Source: Patescibacteria group bacterium (GTDB taxonomy: Bacteria; Patescibacteriota; Patescibacteriia; PEXW01). Taken from it: a stretch of DNA of 64,000 nt. The translations under genes and the position numbers were made by a program. Shown piece by piece: positions 3,670 to 61,333 of the stretch. Numbering within the stretch: position 1 is the first letter of the stretch; every line of letters starts with the position of its first letter. Location: positions 2,913 to 66,912 of the forward strand of contig JBAYJA010000005.1 of assembly GCA_041665345.1 (NCBI GenBank). The letters run 5' to 3'. The notes beneath the pieces are model-generated. The model was not told where the DNA came from. It worked only from the letters and a program-made list of their open reading frames with translations, and did no database searches.

Positions 3670-3798
3670 ACATTTTTTATTAAGTAATTTGCTTATATTC
3701 TAGCAAAAAAATGTGAGTTTGTCAACTAACTTCTACCTTGTCGGATAAGAATGGGTGGGTATAGAATAGAGCTATTCGCAGGTAAATTGCCTAAAAAT

Positions 3799-4221
3799 AT
3801 GGAAACCCAGAAAAAACTTTACCGATCAAAAACCAACCGCGTCATTGCTGGTGTGGCCGGTGGTTTAGGCGAGTATTTTGCCATTGATCCGGTCATTTTT
3901 CGGGTGCTGTTCGTCGCGCTCGCTTTTGCGGGTGGGTCTGGGCTGCTCCTTTACATCATTGGCATGCTCGTCATCCCCGAAGCGTCAGGCGTGACAACCG
4001 CGCAGTCAGAGGTGGTTATTGATAAGGAAGGAAAAGTGCAGAATACCGCCCAAGGCTGGTTGGTTGATCGCCGGAACCTCATTGGCTTGCTCATTGTGGT
4101 GGTGGGCATCATTGCCCTTTTGAATCAGGTAGCCCCCCTACACTGGTTCCGCTGGGACTTCTTCTGGCCAATTGTCATCATCATCGTGGGTGCATACCTC
4201 ATCATGAAAAACCGACGCTAA
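3799..4221 (+). CDS. PspC-domain membrane protein
   Basis: LYRSKTNRVIAGVAGGLGEYFAIDPVIFRVLFV is the PspC domain signature. Start placed at the internal ATG 3799; the ORF opens at 3751. Confidence 0.7.
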   Translation: METQKKLYRSKTNRVIAGVAGGLGEYFAIDPVIFRVLFVALAFAGGSGLLLYIIGMLVIPEASGVTTAQSEVVIDKEGKVQNTAQGWLVDRRNLIGLLIVVVGIIALLNQVAPLHWFRWDFFWPIVIIIVGAYLIMKNRR

Positions 4222-4222
4222 T

Positions 4223-5242
4223 ATGGATATTACGAATCAAGAGTCAAAAACACAGAACCCGGAACCAGAAAAGCAGGAGCCAAAGGTGGAACCCAAACCG
4301 AATCCAGAACCGCAAGTTGTGAAAGAAGTGCACCACCATCACTACAAGCGCGGGTTCAATCCTGGTAGCATGTTCTTCGGTCTACTTATCATTGTCGTGG
4401 GTGTGGCTTTTTTGGGCCGGAACGCGGGCTGGTTTGACTTCTCCTTTCAAGTAGATTGGAACATCATTTGGCCAGTCATACTCATTTTGGTTGGTCTGTC
4501 TTTCTTCAACCGGCGGGGTTGGGTGTCTGGGGTTATCGGCGGCATCATCACAGTTATTGTGGTTGGCTTAGTGGCGTGGGCAGTGTTTGGCGGAACCGCG
4601 CACCGGGAAACCACTACAGATACCGTGTCCATTCTGAAACAAGAGAAAGTTGCGGAGAGCGTGGTCAATATCAAGACCGGCGCAGGCAAACTCACCATCA
4701 ACGGTAGTATCCCAGCCTCAAGTACGTCACTCATTACTGGTACGCACACGACGAACAATCTGAGTCTCACCAAGGAGAGCTCATTAAGTGAAACTACACA
4801 GCACACAACCTTGAGCACGAAGTCCAGCGGGAGCTGGGTCTTCAACCATCGTAATGAACTTAGCTTGCAGCTGGCGAAGGATATGCCAACCAGTCTCATT
4901 CTGGATACGGGCGCCATGGACATGACCTTGGATCTTTCTGAGATTCAAGCGAAACTAGTGGATGTGGACACGGGCGCTTCTACGCTCAATCTTACCTTAG
5001 GTGATCTGCTGGAAACTTCTGAAGTGCGGGTGGATGCCGGAGCGAGCACCATCAACCTGACGTTACCCAAAACCCTGGGGGCAAAATTGTCTTTGGACTC
5101 AGGTGCAACGTCGAAGAGCCTCGCAGACTTTACCAAAATTGATGAGCATACCTACGAGTCTACCAACTACAGCTCAACTAGTAAGAAGGTAAACCTGGAT
5201 TTTGACCTGGGGGCAGCCACCCTGGATATTCGGTGGAAGTAA
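4223..5242 (+). CDS. membrane protein with a LiaF/DUF4097-like C-terminal beta-rich domain (PspC partner)
   Basis: His-rich N-terminus, two transmembrane segments, then a Thr/Ser/Leu-rich repetitive C-terminal domain of the kind seen in LiaF-like proteins. Adjacent to the PspC gene. Confidence 0.55.
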   Translation: MDITNQESKTQNPEPEKQEPKVEPKPNPEPQVVKEVHHHHYKRGFNPGSMFFGLLIIVVGVAFLGRNAGWFDFSFQVDWNIIWPVILILVGLSFFNRRGWVSGVIGGIITVIVVGLVAWAVFGGTAHRETTTDTVSILKQEKVAESVVNIKTGAGKLTINGSIPASSTSLITGTHTTNNLSLTKESSLSETTQHTTLSTKSSGSWVFNHRNELSLQLAKDMPTSLILDTGAMDMTLDLSEIQAKLVDVDTGASTLNLTLGDLLETSEVRVDAGASTINLTLPKTLGAKLSLDSGATSKSLADFTKIDEHTYESTNYSSTSKKVNLDFDLGAATLDIRWK

Positions 5243-5825: not shown

Positions 5826-6353
5826 TTGCAAGAAATTGATTCCTGCGGCATCCTGAAAGGTATGCCGCTTCGCGTCTACCCAAAAAGAAAACAGATGGTT
5901 TCAACCCGACGACTTCTTGGCTTTGGGTTTGGTGCTTTCGCAATCGTATTGCTTGGAGTTTCGTTGTACCCTGAGAACAAACCAGTAGCAGTTGAAGCAC
6001 AATGCGATACGGTTTCCGTAGCGCAGCAGTATGCCGCGGCTGACCTTGTCCTCACCGGCGAAGTTTTTCTGGTTGTGCCGGATGGTGTTGAAAACGCAAA
6101 GGTGCTCATTACCCCTAGCCGTTTGTATAAAGGTAAAGTACCAGCAATAGGTATTGCCATTGCCGCCAAAGCAGGAGCCAACAAAGTGGAAAGCGATGTG
6201 GCCGGGGAGCTGCACTTTGCTTCAGGCCAACCGCCGTACCTACTCTTTCTCAAGACGGGCGAAAACGGTGTGTACACAACCAGTCGCTGCATGGGGAGCC
6301 GGTTGCTAGGCGAGGGACTGACATCTGAAGAACGAAAAGCGTTTGGTATATAG
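5826..6353 (+). CDS. hypothetical exported or membrane-anchored protein
   Basis: N-terminal hydrophobic segment LLGFGFGAFAIVLLGVSLY; no catalytic motif recognised. Confidence 0.35.
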   Translation: MQEIDSCGILKGMPLRVYPKRKQMVSTRRLLGFGFGAFAIVLLGVSLYPENKPVAVEAQCDTVSVAQQYAAADLVLTGEVFLVVPDGVENAKVLITPSRLYKGKVPAIGIAIAAKAGANKVESDVAGELHFASGQPPYLLFLKTGENGVYTTSRCMGSRLLGEGLTSEERKAFGI

Positions 6354-6408
6354 CAAAAGTGTGTCCTGGTAAAAAAAGAGACCTCTATTGCGAGGTCTCG
6401 GTGTTTGC

Positions 6409-7179
6409 TTATGCAAACGAACGGTTGTAGTAGGTCAGATCTAGGCGCCCGTTGCTGCCCTGGTCTGGTATACCAGTGTAGAGCGTAGCTCCGCAGTTGA
6501 TCGGTTTCTCCTCCTCATCAATTCGGTTGAACTCATGTTCATCCAAGCGCTCCAGATTCGCGCGTAAAGCTAGGATGGTTAAGTGGTGACTGACCACGAG
6601 AATTTTTTTCCCGGAAAAGTCGCGCGTAAGGGTGTTCAACCAGGAACGGACTCGTTCCCGTACGTCTGGAACATTCTCTCCCTGCTGCCAGCGAAACCAA
6701 TACGGGCCTTCCTGTTCGTACAAACGCCGTTGCTCTGGGTAGAAAGCAAAGTATATACGCCAGTCGTTGTAGAGCAGTGATAATCCGTGTTCGAGTTCTC
6801 GAATACGTTCTTCCTCAACCATTTTTACGTTTGCAAGTTCTGGCCAACCTTTCTGTAAACCGACTAGCGTGCTCTTCGTTCGTTCGTATGGTGAGCAGAA
6901 AATGAGTTCAGGTGCCGCTATTTGGTCTCTTAGGTTTTGACCAGTTATTACCGCACGTTTTGCTTCAGCGTCTGCAAGGGGCGTTCGACAGTCCGCTACT
7001 TCCAATTTATACCGAAGATGCAAAAGCATAGCAAGCGCGCGCGTTTCCGGAGATTCAGGATTTTCTTCGTACGCTAGTTTGAAGCGATCATACTCCGGGT
7101 CTTGCGCCTTCAATTCCCGTAGTCGGTTGAATTTTGACGTGTCGTGCCGGAGGAACAATATGTAGTTCGGCCATTTCAT
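6409..7179 (-). CDS. histidine phosphatase family protein (phosphoglycerate mutase-like)
   Basis: N-terminal LFLRHDTS (RHG-type catalytic motif variant) and a downstream VVSHHLTI motif. Confidence 0.55.
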   Translation of the reverse strand: MKWPNYILFLRHDTSKFNRLRELKAQDPEYDRFKLAYEENPESPETRALAMLLHLRYKLEVADCRTPLADAEAKRAVITGQNLRDQIAAPELIFCSPYERTKSTLVGLQKGWPELANVKMVEEERIRELEHGLSLLYNDWRIYFAFYPEQRRLYEQEGPYWFRWQQGENVPDVRERVRSWLNTLTRDFSGKKILVVSHHLTILALRANLERLDEHEFNRIDEEEKPINCGATLYTGIPDQGSNGRLDLTYYNRSFA

Positions 7180-7249
7180 GTCTTTCTCCTTTTCAAGGTA
7201 ACTGTGTGTTTCATTGCACCTTATGCTATTCCGTTTTTCTCGTCAAGAT

Positions 7250-7347
7250 AAAAAAATCGGGGACCACAGTGGTGCTCTGAGATTTACCGACGAACCAGGT
7301 TTTGCCGAAGTGTTTCTTAGGGAGTAACGCAGCTAGAATTATTTTTG
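7250..7347 (-). repeat. about 100-nt conserved element ending (minus strand) in a hairpin plus U-run; copy 1
   Basis: Near-identical to 7894..7990. Minus-strand reading: ...ttctagctgcgttactc...cttcggcaaaacctggttcg...gagcaccactgtggtccccgattttttt. A TTGAC box follows immediately, then CDS 6409..7179. Confidence 0.6.
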
Positions 7348-7461
7348 TTTAGCGTAGGGAATGTTACGACGAATAAGTTACAAAGCTTCTTTGGTAATTC
7401 TCTTAAAAAGAAAAGCGCCGTACCATATGGTCGTGCGCTGTGTCAATTTTTGTTCACTGTC

Positions 7462-7812
7462 TTATCGACGTAGATCTCGCATATCTTCAGCGACTGAAGT
7501 TTGGTTGGGGAAAGTGATGTCGAATGGAGTGCCGCTACTGTAGAGTGTCCCAGCAAAGCAATCTTTTGCATTTCGCCCAACTTCCCCGAGGACGTACCAT
7601 TCACCATTTTCGACGCGTAGGGCGCCTCCAATTTTTAGGTGCCCCTCCGGAAGCAACAATGCAGCTTTGATAACGATTTCTAGTTGCTCTGTACGATCGC
7701 CACCGGTATGAGCCGTACATACGATAGGCTTCCCATCGGCAAAGGCGTTAAGCATTTCCTTTACCCCGGGTGTTATTAACAGGTTGAGTGTGTCTCGATC
7801 GTGGATCTGCAT
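7462..7812 (-). CDS. hypothetical protein (116 aa from internal ATG)
   Basis: ORF 7462..7911; start placed at MQIHDRD (ATG 7812) because a TTGACA-18-TACTAT promoter and a terminator lie in the region above it. Confidence 0.4.
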   Translation of the reverse strand: MQIHDRDTLNLLITPGVKEMLNAFADGKPIVCTAHTGGDRTEQLEIVIKAALLLPEGHLKIGGALRVENGEWYVLGEVGRNAKDCFAGTLYSSGTPFDITFPNQTSVAEDMRDLRR

Positions 7813-7893
7813 ACGTTCCTTTCTTTTTAAGTTACATTGTATTGTTTTAGTTTCCAGATAGTATAAAGCCATTTCATATTTTGTCAAACGGAT

Positions 7894-7990
7894 AAAAAAA
7901 TCGGGGACCATGTGGTGCCCCGAGATTTGCCAACGAACCAGGTTTTGCCAAAGTGTTGTTTGAGAGTAACGCAGCTAGAACTATTTTCGT
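7894..7990 (-). repeat. about 100-nt conserved element ending in a hairpin plus U-run; copy 2
   Basis: Aligns with 7250..7347 with roughly 85% identity. Hairpin ggggcaccacatggtcccc plus ttttttt on the minus strand, followed by TTGACA-18nt-TACTAT and the start of CDS 7462..7812. Confidence 0.6.
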
Positions 7991-8250
7991 AAGCGTAGGA
8001 ACGTACCTAGCTGAACGTTTGTTCCATCCAGACCCAATGCTGGTAGGAAGATGATGACCTCCAGGCAAAGCTGGTGTCATCACAAAGTGCGATTTTTTCC
8101 TGACTCGGTGCAAGGTGAAAATAGCACGTTTTTTTGTCCTTTTTCAAGGGGTCGCTGGTTTTTGACGGCAGGTTTTGTGGGTGGTAAGGTAAGCAACTAA
8201 TACACAGATCCAAGTAAATATCGAAACTTAACAAATAGAGGAGGTAGCAC

Positions 8251-11200
8251 ATGCTATTTCGTTTTTATCGAAGCCCGGCGCTTTCGGCGATGCGCAGCAC
8301 CGCACTGCTCCAGAAGGCGCAGGCTGAAGTGTCAGCGGATATTACGGCGGTTGAGACCGAGTGGGTCTATACCGTGGCATCAACCCGTACCCTAAAAACG
8401 CAGGAGCGATTGATCCTGGAATGGATCCTGCGGGAAACTTTCCAACCCGAACGTTTTGGTTTGCAGAGCAGCATTGTCACAAATGGCCACATTGAAGTTG
8501 GGCCGCGGCTGGCAATTGTTTCGCCTTTTTCCACCAACGCCGTGGCCATTTGCCACGCGTGTGGGTTGCAGACCATAACCCGGGTGGAGCGTTCTCGACG
8601 TTTCGTTTTCAAACGCGCCGACGGCACAAGCCTTTCTTCAGCAGAGGAAGCGCGCCTGCTCCCCCACCTGTACGATCGGATGACGGAGGAGCGGTACGGA
8701 CAACCACCCAAAAGTTTTGACCAGGAGGTGAGGCGTCAGCCACTTCCGTTGATCCCTATTCTCGCTGAGGGGAAAGCAGCTTTGATACGTGCAAGCAAGG
8801 AGATGGGTTTAGGTTTAGGTGATCAGCTCGTTACCTACGCAGTCGACCACAGCTTGCATACCTTGCAACGGGATTTGAGTGACGTTGAGGTTTTTAAGTT
8901 TGGCCAGCTGAATTCCAACCACTGTCGGCATTTGGTTTTTTGTGCCGAGTACACCATTGACGGTGTGATTATGCCGCATCCTCCCATGGAGATGGTACGT
9001 TTGAGTTTGGCGGGTAATCTTGGAGATATAATCAGCGCGTTGCGGGATAATGCCGGGGCAATGGCGCCACATTTAGTGCGTGCTTTTGTGCCAAGCAATC
9101 CGGGCCAGCCTTCGGCCTACCACCTGGAGGAGGTGGAGTACTGCATTATTTTGAAAGTGGAAACCCATAACCACCCAACGGGTGTTTCGCCCTACGCTGG
9201 CGCAGCCACTGGGACGGGCGGAGAAATTCGTGACCGGCAAGCAAATGGTCGGGGTGGGTTACCACAAACTGGTTTGGCGTGCTACTACGTTGGTAACCTT
9301 TTCTTGCCTGGGTACCGCCAACCTTGGGAAATGGAAATTGGCCAACGTTCACCTTCCATGGCGCCAGCGTTGGAAATTCTCATTCAAGCCTCAAACGGTG
9401 CCTCAGACTATGGCAACTGTTTTGGACAGCCTCTCATTCTCGGGGCGACTCGATCCTTCGAGTTTCTCTTGGATGAGGAGTGGCTGGGGTATGTGAAGCC
9501 AGTAATGGTTGCAGGGGGTGTGGGTTTGATGCGTTCGGACCATGTGCAGAAGCAAAAGCCAGAACCCGGCTTCCTGGTTGTGCAAATTGGCGGCGATGCT
9601 TACTGCATTGGTCTTGGGGGTGCGGGCCGGTCAAGTGTGGACAGCGGTTCGGCTGCTGACTTGCACCTTGATTTTGCTTCGGTGCAACGCGCGAATCCAG
9701 AAATGGAGCAGCGCGTTGATCGGGTCATCCGTGCCTGTGTTGCCTTAGGCCCGCGTAACCCAATTGTGACCATTCAAGATTTGGGTGCGGGCGGAGATTC
9801 AGTTGCGGTGCCGGAAATTGTGCACCCAGTAGGTGCGCGGATCCAGCTTCGGGCTATTCCTTCTGGTGATCCAACTATGTCCGTGCTTGAGCTCTGGTGC
9901 AACGAGAGCCAAGAACGGTTAGTGTTGATTCTTCGACCAGAAGACCTTGAGCTTTTCATCGCGATCTGCAATCGGGAGCGATGTCCCTTTGCGGTTATTG
10001 GTGTGTGTACCGGGGATGGGAAGATTGTCGTGGAAGATGAGGATGGGACGACGCCAGTTAATCTAGGTTTAGATTTTCTTTTGTCCGATTTGCCCCAGAA
10101 GCAAATTACGTCTGAGCGTGTTGCTCGGGCATTCCAGCCTTTGGTGCTACCCGACGGTCTGACGGTTCGCGCTGCGTTGGAGCAAGTTTTTGGGTTTGTG
10201 GACGTTGGCTCCAAAGCCTTTTTGACGCGGAAGGTTGACCGTTCTGTGGGTGGCTGCGTGGCGCAGCAGCAGACCGTAGGTGCGTTGCAGCTCACTCTTG
10301 CTGATCTTGCAGTAACGGCAGATAGTTTTGATAGCCTCACGGGTACTGCTCAAGCCATTGGTGAGCAGCCAATCAAAGGCATTTTGGACAGCGCAGCGGG
10401 TGCCCGCATGTCTGTGGCCGAAGCCTTAACGAATCTCATGTTCGCAAAGGTTACCGGCCTGGACAAGGTTAATTTCTCTGCCACCTGGCAGTGGCCGGCG
10501 GGTCATCCGGGTGAGGATGCACGGCTGTACGATGCCGTACACGCGGTAACCCTGGGTCTGCAAAAGGATCTCGGGGTACGCATCTTCGTGGGAAAAGACT
10601 CACTCTCCATGGCGACACGTGCGGTGCGTGAAGGTGTGGAAACTGTGGTCAAGGCGCCGGGGACTGTTCAGTTTGTGGCGGTTGCACCTATGGCAGATGT
10701 GACTCGGAAAGTCACCCCAGCATTGCAATATCCTGGAATCAGCCAGCTGTTGTTCCTGGATTTGTCCGGTGGGCAGCAGCGGCTGGGCGCTTCGACCTTG
10801 GCGCGGGCGTATAACCAATTGGGTGATATGACCCCGGATCTTGACGATCCAGACTTGCTTCGCCGGGGCTTCCTGGCGGTGCAAGAGCTGCTACGGCTGG
10901 GTTTGATTCACGCCGGGCACGATCGTTCGGACGGTGGACTCATTACCACGCTGCTAGAAATGGCTTTTGCTGGAAACTGTGGGCTTCGCGTGCACTTCAC
11001 GCACCCAAAATTTGGCACCAATCCATTTTCCCTCCTCTTCAATGAAGAGTTGGGCGTCGTGATGGAGTACCAGCCGTCAAGTTGGCCAATGATTGAAAAA
11101 GTTTTGGCCAGCTACGGTTTGCTGGATCAGTGCCAGGACATTGGGCGAACACTGGTGGCCAAAGAGATTACCGTGGTCGGTCCAGATGGCATTATCCTCG

Positions 11201-12177
11201 CTGAGGATATGCGAGTGTTGCGTGATCTGTGGCAAGCCACATCGTATGAGTTAGATATGCGTCAGACGCATTCCACTTTGGTGGAGTCTGAACGGGAAAG
11301 TAATTTTGACCGTTTCGGGCCCACGTACGCTCTCACCTTCCAGCCGACGCATCGTATGAGCAGCGACACGGAGCAAATCCCTGCTCCGAAAGTTGCAATC
11401 TTGCGAGAGGCGGGGACGAATGGCGACCAGGAAATGGCCAAGGTGTTTCAGCTGGCCGGGTTTACGTCGTACGATGTCACCATGACTGATTTGGCGGACG
11501 GTCGGGTGAGCCTGGCTGATTTCCGAGGTCTGGTACTGTGTGGCGGTTTTTCCAACCGTGACGTGCCAGATGCGGGGAAGGGCTGGGCCGCCACCATTCT
11601 GTTCAATGAGCAGGTGCAAGCGCAGTTTAAGGCGTTCTTTGCGCGGCCAGATACGTTCTCTCTGGGAGTGTGCAATGGCTGCCAAGTCATGACGCTCCTG
11701 GGTATTGTGCCTTGGCCAGGGATTACGGCGGCGCAGCAGCCGCGTTTCGTGACCAACACTTCCGAAATTTTTGAGTCACGGTTCAGCGCGGTCAGCATCT
11801 TACCCAGCCCGTCCATTTTCTTCACGGACATGGCGGGTTCAACCTTGGGCATTTGGGTGGCGCATGGCGAAGGCCGCTTGCACTGTTCCGCCGACATGGT
11901 GGCGGAGATTGAGCGGCTGGGTTTAGCGCCTGTGCGGTTTGTGGATGATCAGCGCAGTGTTACGGAACAATACCCGTTCAATCCCAATGGTTCGCCCTTG
12001 GGTATCACCGCGTTATGTTCGGTAGATGGTCGCCACTTAGCCATGATGCCGCACGCTGAGCGACTGTTCCTCCCCTGGCAGTGGCCCTACTGGCCGCAGA
12101 GTTGGGGTGGGCTCAGGGTCAGTCCGTGGCTCCAAATGTTCCAAAATGCGTACGCCTGGTGCGTCCAGCATTCCTAA
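8251..12177 (+). CDS. purL: phosphoribosylformylglycinamidine synthase, single-chain large type
   Basis: 1308-aa ORF with FGAM synthase N-terminal/linker/AIRS-like domains and a C-terminal glutamine amidotransferase domain (GVCNGCQ catalytic Cys, later HGEG). Confidence 0.9.
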   Translation: MLFRFYRSPALSAMRSTALLQKAQAEVSADITAVETEWVYTVASTRTLKTQERLILEWILRETFQPERFGLQSSIVTNGHIEVGPRLAIVSPFSTNAVAICHACGLQTITRVERSRRFVFKRADGTSLSSAEEARLLPHLYDRMTEERYGQPPKSFDQEVRRQPLPLIPILAEGKAALIRASKEMGLGLGDQLVTYAVDHSLHTLQRDLSDVEVFKFGQLNSNHCRHLVFCAEYTIDGVIMPHPPMEMVRLSLAGNLGDIISALRDNAGAMAPHLVRAFVPSNPGQPSAYHLEEVEYCIILKVETHNHPTGVSPYAGAATGTGGEIRDRQANGRGGLPQTGLACYYVGNLFLPGYRQPWEMEIGQRSPSMAPALEILIQASNGASDYGNCFGQPLILGATRSFEFLLDEEWLGYVKPVMVAGGVGLMRSDHVQKQKPEPGFLVVQIGGDAYCIGLGGAGRSSVDSGSAADLHLDFASVQRANPEMEQRVDRVIRACVALGPRNPIVTIQDLGAGGDSVAVPEIVHPVGARIQLRAIPSGDPTMSVLELWCNESQERLVLILRPEDLELFIAICNRERCPFAVIGVCTGDGKIVVEDEDGTTPVNLGLDFLLSDLPQKQITSERVARAFQPLVLPDGLTVRAALEQVFGFVDVGSKAFLTRKVDRSVGGCVAQQQTVGALQLTLADLAVTADSFDSLTGTAQAIGEQPIKGILDSAAGARMSVAEALTNLMFAKVTGLDKVNFSATWQWPAGHPGEDARLYDAVHAVTLGLQKDLGVRIFVGKDSLSMATRAVREGVETVVKAPGTVQFVAVAPMADVTRKVTPALQYPGISQLLFLDLSGGQQRLGASTLARAYNQLGDMTPDLDDPDLLRRGFLAVQELLRLGLIHAGHDRSDGGLITTLLEMAFAGNCGLRVHFTHPKFGTNPFSLLFNEELGVVMEYQPSSWPMIEKVLASYGLLDQCQDIGRTLVAKEITVVGPDGIILAEDMRVLRDLWQATSYELDMRQTHSTLVESERESNFDRFGPTYALTFQPTHRMSSDTEQIPAPKVAILREAGTNGDQEMAKVFQLAGFTSYDVTMTDLADGRVSLADFRGLVLCGGFSNRDVPDAGKGWAATILFNEQVQAQFKAFFARPDTFSLGVCNGCQVMTLLGIVPWPGITAAQQPRFVTNTSEIFESRFSAVSILPSPSIFFTDMAGSTLGIWVAHGEGRLHCSADMVAEIERLGLAPVRFVDDQRSVTEQYPFNPNGSPLGITALCSVDGRHLAMMPHAERLFLPWQWPYWPQSWGGLRVSPWLQMFQNAYAWCVQHS

Positions 12178-15130: not shown

Positions 15131-16258
15131 TTATTTGCCCGGAGGACGCAAGAACCGATTTTTTTCAGGTCCGAAAATGACCCCGCGTCGCCCTGTAACG
15201 ACTTTGCCGAGTTCAAACATTTCGTACCCGGAAGCAACGCCTGCATCTATAGCGAGGTTGACCATTTTGCGTGGCACAAAGGCACAGTAGCCAATGCCCC
15301 AGTTAAAGGTCTTGAGGCAGGTTTTGAGGTCAACACCGAGTTCACGCATGAAGCGAAAGATGAGTGGGATATCCTTTGGCCAGCCGTCCTTGCTGATGAC
15401 GTATGTGAATGAGCGCTGATCAAATGCCATTTTGCTTACGCCATCGCCAGTCATGGGAGCCAACGCATGGATGTCAACGCCATATTCCTGCATTTTTTCA
15501 ACCCAGGCAACATACGATCGGGTCGGTATCAATGTTTCATCACCCAAAGTATTACCGTTCGGCAGTTTGGTTAAGAATTGATCCTGCAAGGTAAGCGCAC
15601 GTTTGATAATCAACGAAATGCCGTTCGCGTGTACACCGGAAGACGTAGCACCAATAATGACGTCACCCACACGTAAACGTTTTCCGGTAATACGTAGTTT
15701 CGGATTCGTGATAATACCAAGTGCACATCCAGAAAGCGACGGCGCGCTCTTGACCGGCGGTTCCGCTTTAATCAGGTAGCGCAGCGATGGCGATTCGCCA
15801 GCCGGCAATGCCATCCCCGCTAGCTTGCAGATTTGGTAGAAGCTTTCTGCTAGTACCTTCGCGCGCTTTTTGTCGCTGAACCACTCGCTGTCTCCTGCAG
15901 CAACTTCATCGGTATATCCGAAAGGCATAGCGCCTTGGGCAATGAGGTCGTTTACCGCCATGAGCGCAGCATCGATTCCGATGCCTTCATAGTAGGTTCG
16001 TCCAGTACCCGCATGTTGGTACATCCATTCGGATATCCAGTTCTTGTTGCCCAATCCCTCAGTGGTCTGGACAAGAATCGACTTGTTCGTCCAACGGCTA
16101 AATCGGTACATTGCACCATGCGCGTGCGGGGCATGGACAACAAACACGCCTCGACGATTTGGGAAGCGCAATGTTCGTTTTCCCGTTTCTTGCATCATGT
16201 GCTTGAATGGGTCGATTTTTCGGTAATTGACGCCAGCAAGGGCGTATTCGTTTTTCAA
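15131..16258 (-). CDS. PurM-like (AIR synthase-related) family protein
   Basis: LAGVNYRKIDPFK near the N-terminus and GDVIIGATSSGVHANGISL in the C-terminal half resemble the PurM/ThiL/HypE superfamily. Not canonical purM, so the specific function is unknown. Confidence 0.45.
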   Translation of the reverse strand: MKNEYALAGVNYRKIDPFKHMMQETGKRTLRFPNRRGVFVVHAPHAHGAMYRFSRWTNKSILVQTTEGLGNKNWISEWMYQHAGTGRTYYEGIGIDAALMAVNDLIAQGAMPFGYTDEVAAGDSEWFSDKKRAKVLAESFYQICKLAGMALPAGESPSLRYLIKAEPPVKSAPSLSGCALGIITNPKLRITGKRLRVGDVIIGATSSGVHANGISLIIKRALTLQDQFLTKLPNGNTLGDETLIPTRSYVAWVEKMQEYGVDIHALAPMTGDGVSKMAFDQRSFTYVISKDGWPKDIPLIFRFMRELGVDLKTCLKTFNWGIGYCAFVPRKMVNLAIDAGVASGYEMFELGKVVTGRRGVIFGPEKNRFLRPPGK

Positions 16259-34060: not shown

Positions 34061-34136
34061 TGGTGGACCTCAGGAGACTCGAACTCCTTACCTCTTCCAT
34101 GCCATGGAAGCGCTCTACCAGATGAGCTAGAGGCCC
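34061..34136 (-). tRNA. tRNA-Ala (anticodon GGC), CCA encoded
   Basis: Reverse complement gggcctctagctcatctggtagagcgcttccatggcatggaagaggtaaggagttcgagtctcctgaggtccacca folds as a cloverleaf; G3:U70 Ala identity pair; anticodon loop aTGGCat. Confidence 0.85.
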
Positions 34137-34166
34137 ATATTGGGCGTACTTTAACATACCTACCAT

Positions 34167-34188
34167 AATTGTTCCACGTGGAACAATT
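34167..34188. promoter_or_regulatory. palindrome AATTGTTCCACGTGGAACAATT (copy 2), about 30 nt upstream of tRNA-Ala(GGC)
   Basis: Perfect 22-bp inverted repeat with a CACGTG core. Confidence 0.55.
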
Positions 34189-34201
34189 GTAACTAATCCC
34201 T

Positions 34202-34338
34202 GGATCCCGCGAACGTGGCGCGCACCCTGAGCACAGCCGAAGGGGAGCACGCGTTCGTGGGGAAAGGGGCAACCTTGTGGAGGGTGTAGTGGGGTGGACT
34301 TGCTCTGCCACACGAAACCCGACGCAAGGATTGACCCG
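34202..34338 (-). repeat. tRNA-trailer element copy T6 (after tRNA-Ala CGC), with a diverged 5' half
   Basis: 3' half ccccacgaacgcgtgctc...gcgcgccacgttcgcgggatcc matches the family; the 5' half is diverged. Confidence 0.5.
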
Positions 34339-34412
34339 TGGTGGACCTGGGGAGAATCGAACTCCCGTCTCAGCAATGCGAATGCCGTGTTCTACCACTG
34401 AACCACAGGCCC
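34339..34412 (-). tRNA. tRNA-Ala (anticodon CGC), CCA encoded
   Basis: Reverse complement gggcctgtggttcagtggtagaacacggcattcgcattgctgagacgggagttcgattctccccaggtccacca; G3:U70; anticodon loop tTCGCat. Confidence 0.8.
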
Positions 34413-34441
34413 ATATTTGGCTTAGGTAAGCGTTATTTTCT

Positions 34442-34463
34442 AATTGTTCCACGTGGAACAATT
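34442..34463. promoter_or_regulatory. palindrome AATTGTTCCACGTGGAACAATT (copy 3), about 30 nt upstream of tRNA-Ala(CGC)
   Basis: Exact 22-bp palindrome. Confidence 0.55.
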
Positions 34464-34570
34464 AAATTTCAATAATTTGGCTTTATCCTGACCCAAAGCC
34501 ACCTTCTCTTAGCCTGGGTCAAGGGACCCAGGCCACCCACTTTTGAGCTATTCTTTAAGAGTACTAAAAT

Positions 34571-34721
34571 CTTCGGGGGTCCCCACAGATGTGGCGCGCA
34601 GTCTCCCGAGCGTAGTCGAGGGGGACGAGCACGCGTCTGTGGGGTAAAGCGAGGCTTCGTGCGACGGGCGGAGCGGATTCGGTAGCAACCGGATACGCGC
34701 AGCTCTGAGCACGAAACGAGC
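34571..34721 (-). repeat. tRNA-trailer element copy T4 (after tRNA-Arg CCU)
   Basis: Minus strand: gctcgtttcgtgctcagagctgcgcgtatccggttgctaccgaatccg...cacgaagcctcgctttaccccacagacgcgtgctc...gcgcgccacatctgtggggacccccgaag. Confidence 0.65.
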
Positions 34722-34796
34722 TGGTGCCCCCGGAGGGAATCGAACCCCCATCTCTCCCTTAGGACGGGATTGCTCAATCCATTGAGCTACAGGGGC
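34722..34796 (-). tRNA. tRNA-Arg (anticodon CCU), CCA encoded
   Basis: Reverse complement gcccctgtagctcaatggattgagcaatcccgtcctaagggagagatgggggttcgattccctccgggggcacca; cloverleaf with anticodon loop gtCCTaa. Confidence 0.75.
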
Positions 34797-60800: not shown

Positions 60801-60876
60801 GCGCCCGTAGCTCAACGGATAGAGTACATGGCTTCGAACCATGGGGTTGGGGGTTCGATTCCCTCCGGGCGCACCA
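60801..60876 (+). tRNA. tRNA-Arg (anticodon UCG), CCA encoded
   Basis: gcgcccgtagctcaacggatagagtacatggcttcgaaccatggggttgggggttcgattccctccgggcgcacca; anticodon loop cTTCGaa. Confidence 0.8.
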
Positions 60877-61026
60877 GCTCGTTTCGTGCTCCGCCCTGCG
60901 TGTAGCCGTTGCTACGGCTCCACTCCGGACTCCGCACGAAGCCTCGCTTTGCCCCACAAACCCGTGCTCCCCTTCGATTCGCTTCGCTCACTCAGGGTCC
61001 GCTTCGTGTTTGTGGGGACCCCGAAG
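60877..61026 (+). repeat. tRNA-trailer element copy T1
   Basis: gctcgtttcgtgctccgccctgcgtgtagccgttgctacggctcc...cacgaagcctcgctttgccccacaaac...gtttgtggggaccccgaag; starts at the first nucleotide after CCA. Confidence 0.65.
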
Positions 61027-61033
61027 AAAGCTC

Positions 61034-61110
61034 GGGCAACTAGCTCAGTTGGTTAGAGCGTCTCGTTTACACCGAGAAGGTCGTAGGTTCGACTCCTACG
61101 TTGCCCACCA
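61034..61110 (+). tRNA. tRNA-Val (anticodon UAC), CCA encoded
   Basis: gggcaactagctcagttggttagagcgtctcgtttacaccgagaaggtcgtaggttcgactcctacgttgcccacca; anticodon loop tTTACac. Confidence 0.85.
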
Positions 61111-61247
61111 GCTCGTTTCGCGCTCAGAGCTGCGCGTATCCGGTTGCTACCGAATCCGCTCCGCCCGTCGCGCGAAGCCTCGCTTTACCCCAGAAACGCG
61201 TGCTCGTCCTGATGCAGGACTGCGCGCCACATTTCTGGGGACCCCGG
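61111..61247 (+). repeat. tRNA-trailer element copy T2
   Basis: gctcgtttcgcgctcagagctgcgcgtatccggttgctaccgaatccg...cgcgaagcctcgctttaccccagaaacgcgtgctcgtcctgatgcaggactgcgcgccacatttctggggaccccgg. Confidence 0.65.
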
Positions 61248-61257
61248 AAAAAATTAT

Positions 61258-61333
61258 GGGCCCTTAGCTCATTTGGTAGAGCGCCGCGTTTGCAACGCGG
61301 AGGTGACCGGTTCGAGCCCGGTAGGGTCCACCA
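61258..61333 (+). tRNA. tRNA-Ala (anticodon UGC), CCA encoded
   Basis: gggcccttagctcatttggtagagcgccgcgtttgcaacgcggaggtgaccggttcgagcccggtagggtccacca; G3:U70; anticodon loop tTTGCaa. Confidence 0.85.

Follow-up and report, generated by a model that had tools for sequence, protein, structure and literature searches.

A candidate structured RNA gene of Patescibacteria and its truncated partial copy upstream of a histidine-phosphatase-family gene

The repeat pair and the genes that follow it

The stretch of DNA analysed here, 64,000 nucleotides (nt) of contig JBAYJA010000005.1 from a Patescibacteria group bacterium (hereafter the window), carries on its minus strand a direct repeat, and it is this repeat, together with the RNA gene to which it appears to belong, that concerns us. 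The proteins encoded on the contig mark it as part of a metagenome-assembled Patescibacteria genome. Copy A lies at 7894-7990 and copy B at 7251-7348, with a start-to-start spacing of 643 nt, and a global alignment of the two shows identity in 85 of 98 columns (86.7%). An earlier note on this DNA, made from the letters alone, had described an element of about 100 nt duplicated at about 85% identity. The two direct copies and their similarity are as it described them, but the extent is larger than was stated: the similarity stretches some 20 nt further upstream, to about 8012 in A and about 7367 in B, and downstream past a TTGAC -35 box, so that we delimit copy A as 7894..8012 and copy B as 7250..7367. 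The longest blocks that are invariant between the copies are two 17-mers, TTCTAGCTGCGTTACTC and GGCAAAACCTGGTTCGT, each of which occurs exactly twice in the 64 kb even when three mismatches are allowed; among shuffled sequences two matches were reached in 0 of 100 cases for the former and in 7 of 100 for the latter. The genome-wide search for additional copies that had been proposed was run on the 64-kb window, as a profile search with all filters off, and only these two copies are present.

Reading along the minus strand, each copy is followed by a predicted promoter that begins with the TTGAC box the note had pointed out, TTGACA-16-TATACT (7860..7887) after copy A and TTGACG-17-TAAGGT (7218..7246) after copy B. 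The promoter after copy B leads, through a conserved 5' untranslated region (5'UTR; 7180-7217, minus strand), into a gene of the histidine phosphatase family at 6409-7179 (His_Phos_1, Pfam E 5e-16), the two together spanning 6409..7217. The promoter after copy A, which agrees with the consensus at 11 of 12 positions and whose -35 box forms the end of the repeated segment, leads into an orphan open reading frame (ORF) of 116 amino acids (aa) at 7462..7812, also on the minus strand. Both genes are where the earlier note had placed them; this orphan ORF is the only one between the copies, and the genes that flank the repeat locus are housekeeping genes.

A second locus and the full extent of the element

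Orthologues of the phosphatase number in the hundreds within Patescibacteria, at 52-67% identity, and the closest of them (P0006, 67%) is found on a Logan metagenomic contig, L001, where a single uninterrupted non-coding region of about 290 nt stands upstream of the gene. This region aligns serially with three segments of the window, i.e. the sequence upstream of copy A (from 8130 to 8013), the element, and what lies downstream of copy B, the third of these being the TTGACG-17-TAAGGT promoter and the 5'UTR, GCAAUGAAA...CCUUGAAAAGGAG. The non-coding sequences of the window and L001 match in blastn over 240 nt at 76% identity (E 1e-40), and a profile search with nhmmer gave end-to-end matches at the copy-A locus (E 1.6e-75) and in L001 (E 2.7e-69), while copy B was matched at profile positions 114-223 only (E 1.4e-24). 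Thus the repeat is not a self-contained element; it corresponds to positions 114-223 of a unit of about 215 nt, the 5' half of which precedes copy A alone. What looks like a repeat within a single genome may, as in this case, be part of a larger unit that comes to light only in comparison with a second genome.

Since one contiguous region of L001 matches three separate segments of the window, the ancestral layout would have been a promoter, an RNA of about 215 nt with four helices and an intrinsic terminator, then directly downstream the phosphatase's own promoter, and the phosphatase gene. In the window the 3' part of the RNA, some 120-130 nt, is present twice, and between the two lies an insert of about 0.5 kb in which the orphan ORF stands between a promoter and a palindromic, terminator-like site. 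The earlier observation that a promoter and a gene come after each copy is literally true, but the two pairs differ in kind, in that the promoter after copy B would be the ancestral one of the phosphatase, whereas the promoter and ORF after copy A belong to the inserted orphan cassette.

How much of this region is conserved beyond what common descent alone would leave can be judged from the adjacent gene. Over the phosphatase coding sequence the window and L001 are 65% identical when all positions are counted, with 73.5%, 80.5% and 39% at the first, second and third codon positions, respectively. The RNA region (L001:93-301) is identical at 74% of positions and the promoter plus 5'UTR at 76%. 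Because third codon positions are near saturation while the non-coding region retains 74-76% identity, the non-coding sequence is conserved above the neutral level and is under purifying selection along its whole length.

The phosphatase promoter can be followed further. Its hexamers are the same in L001 and its spacer differs, and three orthologous loci that have no RNA (L004, L005 and L006) carry TTGACA-16/17-TAnnnT at the same distance of 36-39 nt from the ATG. As the same promoter geometry occurs where there is no RNA, the phosphatase appears to be independent of the RNA promoter, TTGACG-17-TAAGGT being in all likelihood the ancestral promoter of the phosphatase gene and the RNA an upstream, separately terminated unit. 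The phosphatase 5'UTR (window 7180-7217, L001:333-368) is itself strongly conserved, GCAAUGAAA..ACCUUGAAAAGGAG, and CCUU and AAGG within it could form a small hairpin overlapping the Shine-Dalgarno sequence. At the other end of the gene a symmetric hairpin, GAGACCTC...GAGGTCTC, occupies 6378-6399, between the phosphatase and a convergent ORF at 5826-6353 on the plus strand; it is terminator-like on both strands and has a clean T-run on the minus strand only.

Structure of the candidate RNA and state of the second copy

The candidate RNA would extend on the minus strand from about 8111 to 7894, its start being placed about 7 nt after the -10 box and its end at a U7 tract. A predicted promoter, TTGAAA-18-TATTTT with a TG extension, lies at 8118..8147, and sites of this kind stand at homologous positions in the two genomes, TTGAAA-18-TGnTATTTT in the window and TTGGCA-17-TGnTATTTT in L001 (both consensus matches only), with TATTTTCACC conserved between them. 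On the -35 box of the RNA promoter in L001 (L001:50-70) there is also a perfect palindrome with 9-base-pair (bp) arms, CTCCGCCTTGGCAAGGCGGAG, which has no counterpart in the window. On the opposite strand this palindrome is followed by T5 and is terminator-like, and TTGCCA-17-CACAAT, a promoter-like site in divergent orientation, shares it; the palindrome may serve as an operator or as a terminator for both directions.

The window RNA folds with a minimum free energy (MFE) of -65.1 kcal/mol and a z score of -2.54, the L001 RNA with a z score of -3.02, and consensus and single-sequence predictions agree on a fold in which a long-range helix, P1, encloses three hairpins and is followed by the terminator. 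In P1 the 5' strand CGAGUCAGG (8099..8107) forms 9 bp with the 3' strand CCUGGUUCG (7934..7942), the latter being the aacctggttcg of the earlier note; in L001 seven of eight pairs are kept, with one GU->GC change and one U-U mismatch. P2, GUGAUGAC-CCAG / CUGG-GUCAUCAU (8051..8083), has 12 bp in both genomes, which differ at one pair by a compensatory AU->GC change and at another by AU->GU. P3, UUCC-UA-CCAG / CUGG-AU-GGAA with an 8-nt loop (8022..8049), has eight invariant pairs, the differences being confined to the internal and apical loops. P4, AACG-CAGCUAGG / UUCUAGCUG-CGUU (7968..8019), is the variable hairpin, its 3' arm being the ttctagctgcgttactc that the note had listed; in L001 a hairpin stands at the same position and keeps the base AAC...GUU, with an otherwise unrelated sequence, AACAUUUA-CCAU / AUGG-UAAAUGUU (AUUUA-CCAU/AUGG-UAAAU), and the z score of this hairpin is -2.9 as against -1.0 for that of the window. 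The intrinsic terminator, UCGGGGCACC...GGUCCCCGA plus U7 (7894..7923), was called terminator-like by the scan, and its hairpin has -14.3 kcal/mol in copy A and -14.6 kcal/mol in L001, each followed by U7. Across P2 and P3, all ten substitutions between the window and L001 fall in loops or bulges or preserve pairing, and in the 3' half of the RNA frame-breaking indels of 1 nt and 7 nt rule out coding.

Copy A, which is the 3' half of the intact gene, thus contains the P4 loop, the 3' arm of P4, the 3' strand of P1 and the terminator. Copy B, a 5'-truncated fragment, lacks the 5' strand of P1, all of P2 and P3 and the 5' arm of P4, and its fold is no better than that of shuffled sequence (z +1.28). 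The note had both copies ending in a GGGG...CCCC terminator with U7, which holds for copy A (GGGGCACCACATGGTCCCC plus U7) but not for copy B, where the 5' arm of the hairpin reads CAGAGC rather than CGGGGC owing to two G->A changes; the hairpin is accordingly weak (-4.3 kcal/mol as against -14.3 in A) and was not called by the terminator scan. With L001 as the outgroup, copy B has five derived substitutions, the two G->A changes that destroy G-C pairs of the terminator among them, and copy A, in which every derived change is at an unpaired position, has three substitutions and has lost 1 nt from the terminator loop. Where its changes fall suggests relaxed selection on copy B, which would be non-functional. 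Should its idea fail, the note had foreseen a plain terminator duplicated recently and locally; this describes copy B fairly well but is rejected for copy A, whose sequence is conserved in L001.

The insert that separates the copies has a GC content like that of its neighbours and shows no similarity to the rest of the window. Besides the 11/12 promoter, the orphan ORF has an AAGGA ribosome-binding site and, downstream, a palindrome with a T-rich tail (7405..7439, arms 7414-7439, minus strand) that is probably a terminator; an alternative gene call of 149 aa for the same ORF begins inside the RNA terminator. No real homologue of the ORF was found among 1.8 billion representatives, a word-index search retrieving only the ORF itself, and the matches of an exhaustive HMMER search were rejected as artefacts (one giant protein contains 18 repeats of a 17-residue motif, and a second protein is matched at its DUF5122 propeller blades). 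The resemblance of the ORF to DUF5122 beta-propeller blade motifs is only weak. An origin of the insert by tandem duplication was considered and rejected, as all that blastn and tblastx found in common with the phosphatase region was a 10-mer, ATGAAATGGC (E 0.65), and so was an origin from a mobile element, there being no nearby integrase, no PHROG match and no phage or plasmid similarity. The phosphatase gene begins with these same 10 nt (the MKW... start that every orthologue shares). The 10-mer at 7873-7882 sits about 10 nt past the terminator of copy A, within the spacer of the orphan promoter; it may be a relic of a duplicated gene start or be due to chance.

Further members of the RNA were sought in several collections. 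Rfam 15 gave no match at E<=10 that overlaps the RNA (window 6300-8400, and L001), in line with the note, which could place no riboswitch consensus in the sequence, and at gathering thresholds the whole window yields only tRNAs. T-box, cobalamin and ykkC-type riboswitches were each considered and dropped, no Rfam model supporting any of them; the cobalamin class was considered on account of a resemblance of AGUCAGGA to the B12 box. Pattern scans built on blocks that the two copies, or the window and L001, have in common found no further homologue in GTDB genomes and JGI metagenomes and no match in the viral collection IMG/VR; the sole hit (L008) was a chance match inside an ORF of 733 aa. The RNA is absent from nine other orthologous phosphatase loci (L002-L007 and L012-L014) and from three loci of purL relatives (L009-L011), so that it occurs upstream of 2 of the 11 phosphatase orthologue loci examined, if copy B of the window is counted as one of the two. 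In the literature, no Patescibacteria-specific or histidine-phosphatase-associated RNA motif was found described.

Possible roles and what they would mean

Taken together, we favour with moderate confidence the reading that the repeat is the 3' half of a single structured non-coding RNA gene of about 215 nt, belonging to a narrow lineage of Patescibacteria, together with a truncated partial copy of it. The earlier note had offered a duplicated small RNA gene with its own terminator or a structured regulatory element, and the comparison does point to a minus-strand non-coding RNA that is conserved and structured and ends in a terminator, but not to two equivalent genes of about 100 nt; the RNA is probably one new, lineage-restricted small RNA gene rather than two. 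The intact gene would run from about 8111 to 7894, with a sigma-70-type promoter that has an extended -10 element, P1 closing around P2, P3 and the variable P4, and a strong terminator. Ancestrally it would have stood directly upstream of the independent promoter of the histidine-phosphatase gene, as it still does in L001, and in the genome of the window a cassette of about 0.5 kb (promoter, orphan 116-aa ORF, terminator) would have been inserted, together with a duplication of some 120-130 nt from the 3' half of the RNA. The outcome would be an intact RNA that ends in copy A, and a 5'-truncated, decaying copy B ahead of the phosphatase promoter. We infer that transcription from 8111 to 7894 yields a separate RNA and that this RNA acts alone, most likely by binding a protein or ligand or by acting in trans, the terminator insulating the downstream promoter.

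A stand-alone structured small RNA is thus favoured over a leader of the riboswitch type. Like stand-alone small RNA genes it has a promoter-like site, about 215 nt of sequence that is structured and conserved above neutral, and a GC-rich hairpin with U7, and it is intergenic, lying next to the promoter of the neighbouring gene and yet separable from it. It differs from typical base-pairing small RNAs in that its four-helix junction is more elaborate, and in being known from two genomes and belonging to no Rfam family. We also looked for targets in trans among the 5'UTRs of the phosphatase and the orphan ORF with RNAduplex and rejected the candidates, which were long spurious duplexes at best marginally better than those with shuffled UTRs (231, 21 and 72 of 300 shuffles score as well), and the RNA and UTR segments involved differ between the genomes. 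Like 6S RNA, the candidate is about 200 nt long, with 5' and 3' regions that pair to close the molecule and single-stranded stretches on both sides; unlike 6S RNA, which has a long irregular stem with a central bubble, it has three separate hairpins, and there is no Rfam 6S match at E<=10.

Several considerations weigh against the reading that we favour. Only two independent sequences of the RNA exist, which leaves any test of covariation without statistical power: they offer a single compensatory pair, a result matched by 229 of 500 shuffles. In P1-P3 and the terminator 98.7% of the cells pair, as compared with 24-52% in slid registers, a control that is biased in that the structure was derived from the same two sequences. 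The antisense strand folds about as stably (-65.8 vs -63.7 kcal/mol), which makes the MFE uninformative as to strand, and therefore the minus-strand call rests on G-U pairs, the U7 terminator and the promoter-like sites; the promoters, here as elsewhere in the locus, are consensus matches only. The derived changes are similar in number in the two copies (four in A, five in B), and therefore the case for copy B as a relic rests on its truncation and on the location of its changes, rather than on their rate.

Among alternative explanations, one may first consider a leader acting in cis, i.e. a riboswitch or a protein-dependent attenuator whose terminator gated read-through from the upstream promoter, into the phosphatase ancestrally and into the orphan ORF now. 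We regard this as unlikely, although in each of the two genomes a gene follows the RNA directly on its strand, and the RNA shares with terminating riboswitches and orphan candidates a P1-closed multi-helix junction that passes directly into a terminator, the usual riboswitch layout, co-oriented with a downstream gene of metabolic type. There is also a conserved alternative pairing that involves the terminator 5' arm, as in terminating riboswitches: the 5' strand GCACCGAG can pair with CUCGGGGC over 7 of 8 bp in both genomes, and the two differences between the window and L001 that fall within it keep it intact (GC,CG -> GU,UG). However, enforcing this antiterminator fold costs 12-17 kcal/mol relative to the MFE, and between the terminator and the phosphatase stands a promoter with conserved hexamers and a divergent spacer, its geometry being that seen in RNA-less orthologues. 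Moreover, the association with the phosphatase was lost in the window, where the gene is left with no more than a truncated fragment whose terminator is dead, and therefore the linkage between the RNA and the phosphatase appears dispensable; with nine other orthologue loci lacking the RNA the association with the gene family is inconsistent, and no Rfam riboswitch matches. A bolder version, which we think improbable, is that the RNA is the founder of a Patescibacteria-specific sensor class, an orphan riboswitch or protein-responsive attenuator, with the terminator tuning read-through into a phosphatase that is conserved across Parcubacteria.

It is very unlikely, in our opinion, that the locus shows a plain local duplication of an intergenic region with a terminator and a promoter, devoid of any RNA function. 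Such a duplication would agree with there being just two copies in the window, with a copy B that folds no better than chance, and with the lack of a homologue in any large collection scanned. It fits poorly with L001, in which the repeated sequence and the roughly 120-nt 5' half next to it are 74-76% identical, with helices maintained, against 39% at third codon positions, and 215 conserved nucleotides exceed what a plain terminator needs.

We would give slightly less credence still to the notion that the 3' half of the RNA gene is a recombination or integration site, copy A having arrived as a replacement 3' end and copy B being the original that it displaced. Direct repeats bracket a foreign-looking cassette of 0.5 kb with its own promoter and terminator, copy B still runs on into the same downstream sequence as in L001 (TATCTTGACG...), the ancestral one, and it shares with L001 several states that copy A lacks. 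The arrangement recalls the partial duplications of tRNA and tmRNA genes at genomic islands, in which a repeat of the 3' end of an RNA gene brackets an insert, one copy completing the gene and the other being left as a stranded 3' fragment. Unlike in those islands, though, the RNA here is neither a tRNA nor a tmRNA, the repeats are 87% rather than about 100% identical, and the insert, at about 0.5 kb, is far smaller than any known integrative element, matches its neighbours in GC and is without phage or plasmid similarity, and no gene of a mobile element (integrase, transposase or other) occurs over about 8 kb in either direction.

Least probable of all is that the 5' half of the RNA encodes a peptide, M(T/A)PALPG(G/S)HHLP(T/A)SI(G/K)SGW..., as a leader-peptide attenuator or dual-function RNA: an ATG-initiated frame is open across P2-P3 in both genomes and 5 of its 10 nucleotide differences are synonymous (CCA/CCG, GCT/GCA, TTG/CTG, CCT/CCC, GGA/GGC), but the same ten changes are equally explained by RNA structure, neither genome has a Shine-Dalgarno sequence at a workable distance (neighbouring genes have GGAG/AGGA 5-8 nt upstream), the AUG lies inside the P2 stem, stop and length are not conserved (about 68 aa in the window vs 24 aa in L001), His codons number only two, and frame-shifting indels occur in the 3' half of the RNA, which is conserved despite them.

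Elsewhere in the window we observed a large single-chain PurL of 1308 aa (8251-12177, plus strand) and a gene of the AIR-synthase family (15131-16258, minus strand). De novo purine synthesis genes are not known to be common in genomes of the Candidate Phyla Radiation (CPR). The nearest relatives of this PurL (56-57% identity) lie in purN-purL operons beside genes for a CsoR-like repressor and a copper ATPase. Near purL there is also a PspC-domain / LiaF-like gene pair, at 3751-5242 (plus strand) in the window, and at 19093-20560 of L009 and 22011-23478 of L011, the contigs of the two nearest PurL relatives, with different intervening genes. Two tRNA clusters are present, at 34061-34796 on the minus strand (Ala-GGC, Ala-CGC, Arg-CCT) and at 60801-61333 on the plus strand (Arg-TCG, Val-TAC, Ala-TGC).

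For CPR bacteria, Rfam lists hardly any non-coding RNAs apart from the universal ones. The importance of the present candidate is limited by its narrow distribution, i.e. two metagenomic genomes, and by the lack of a functional lead. Still, in genomes as small as those of the CPR, 215 nt of strongly conserved non-coding sequence with four helices are unlikely to be idle. Were the sensor reading true, it would point to an unrecognised signal in these reduced, symbiotic bacteria. If the RNA gene is confirmed, this group would gain a structured RNA that is lineage-specific, has its promoter and terminator defined, and is directly testable.

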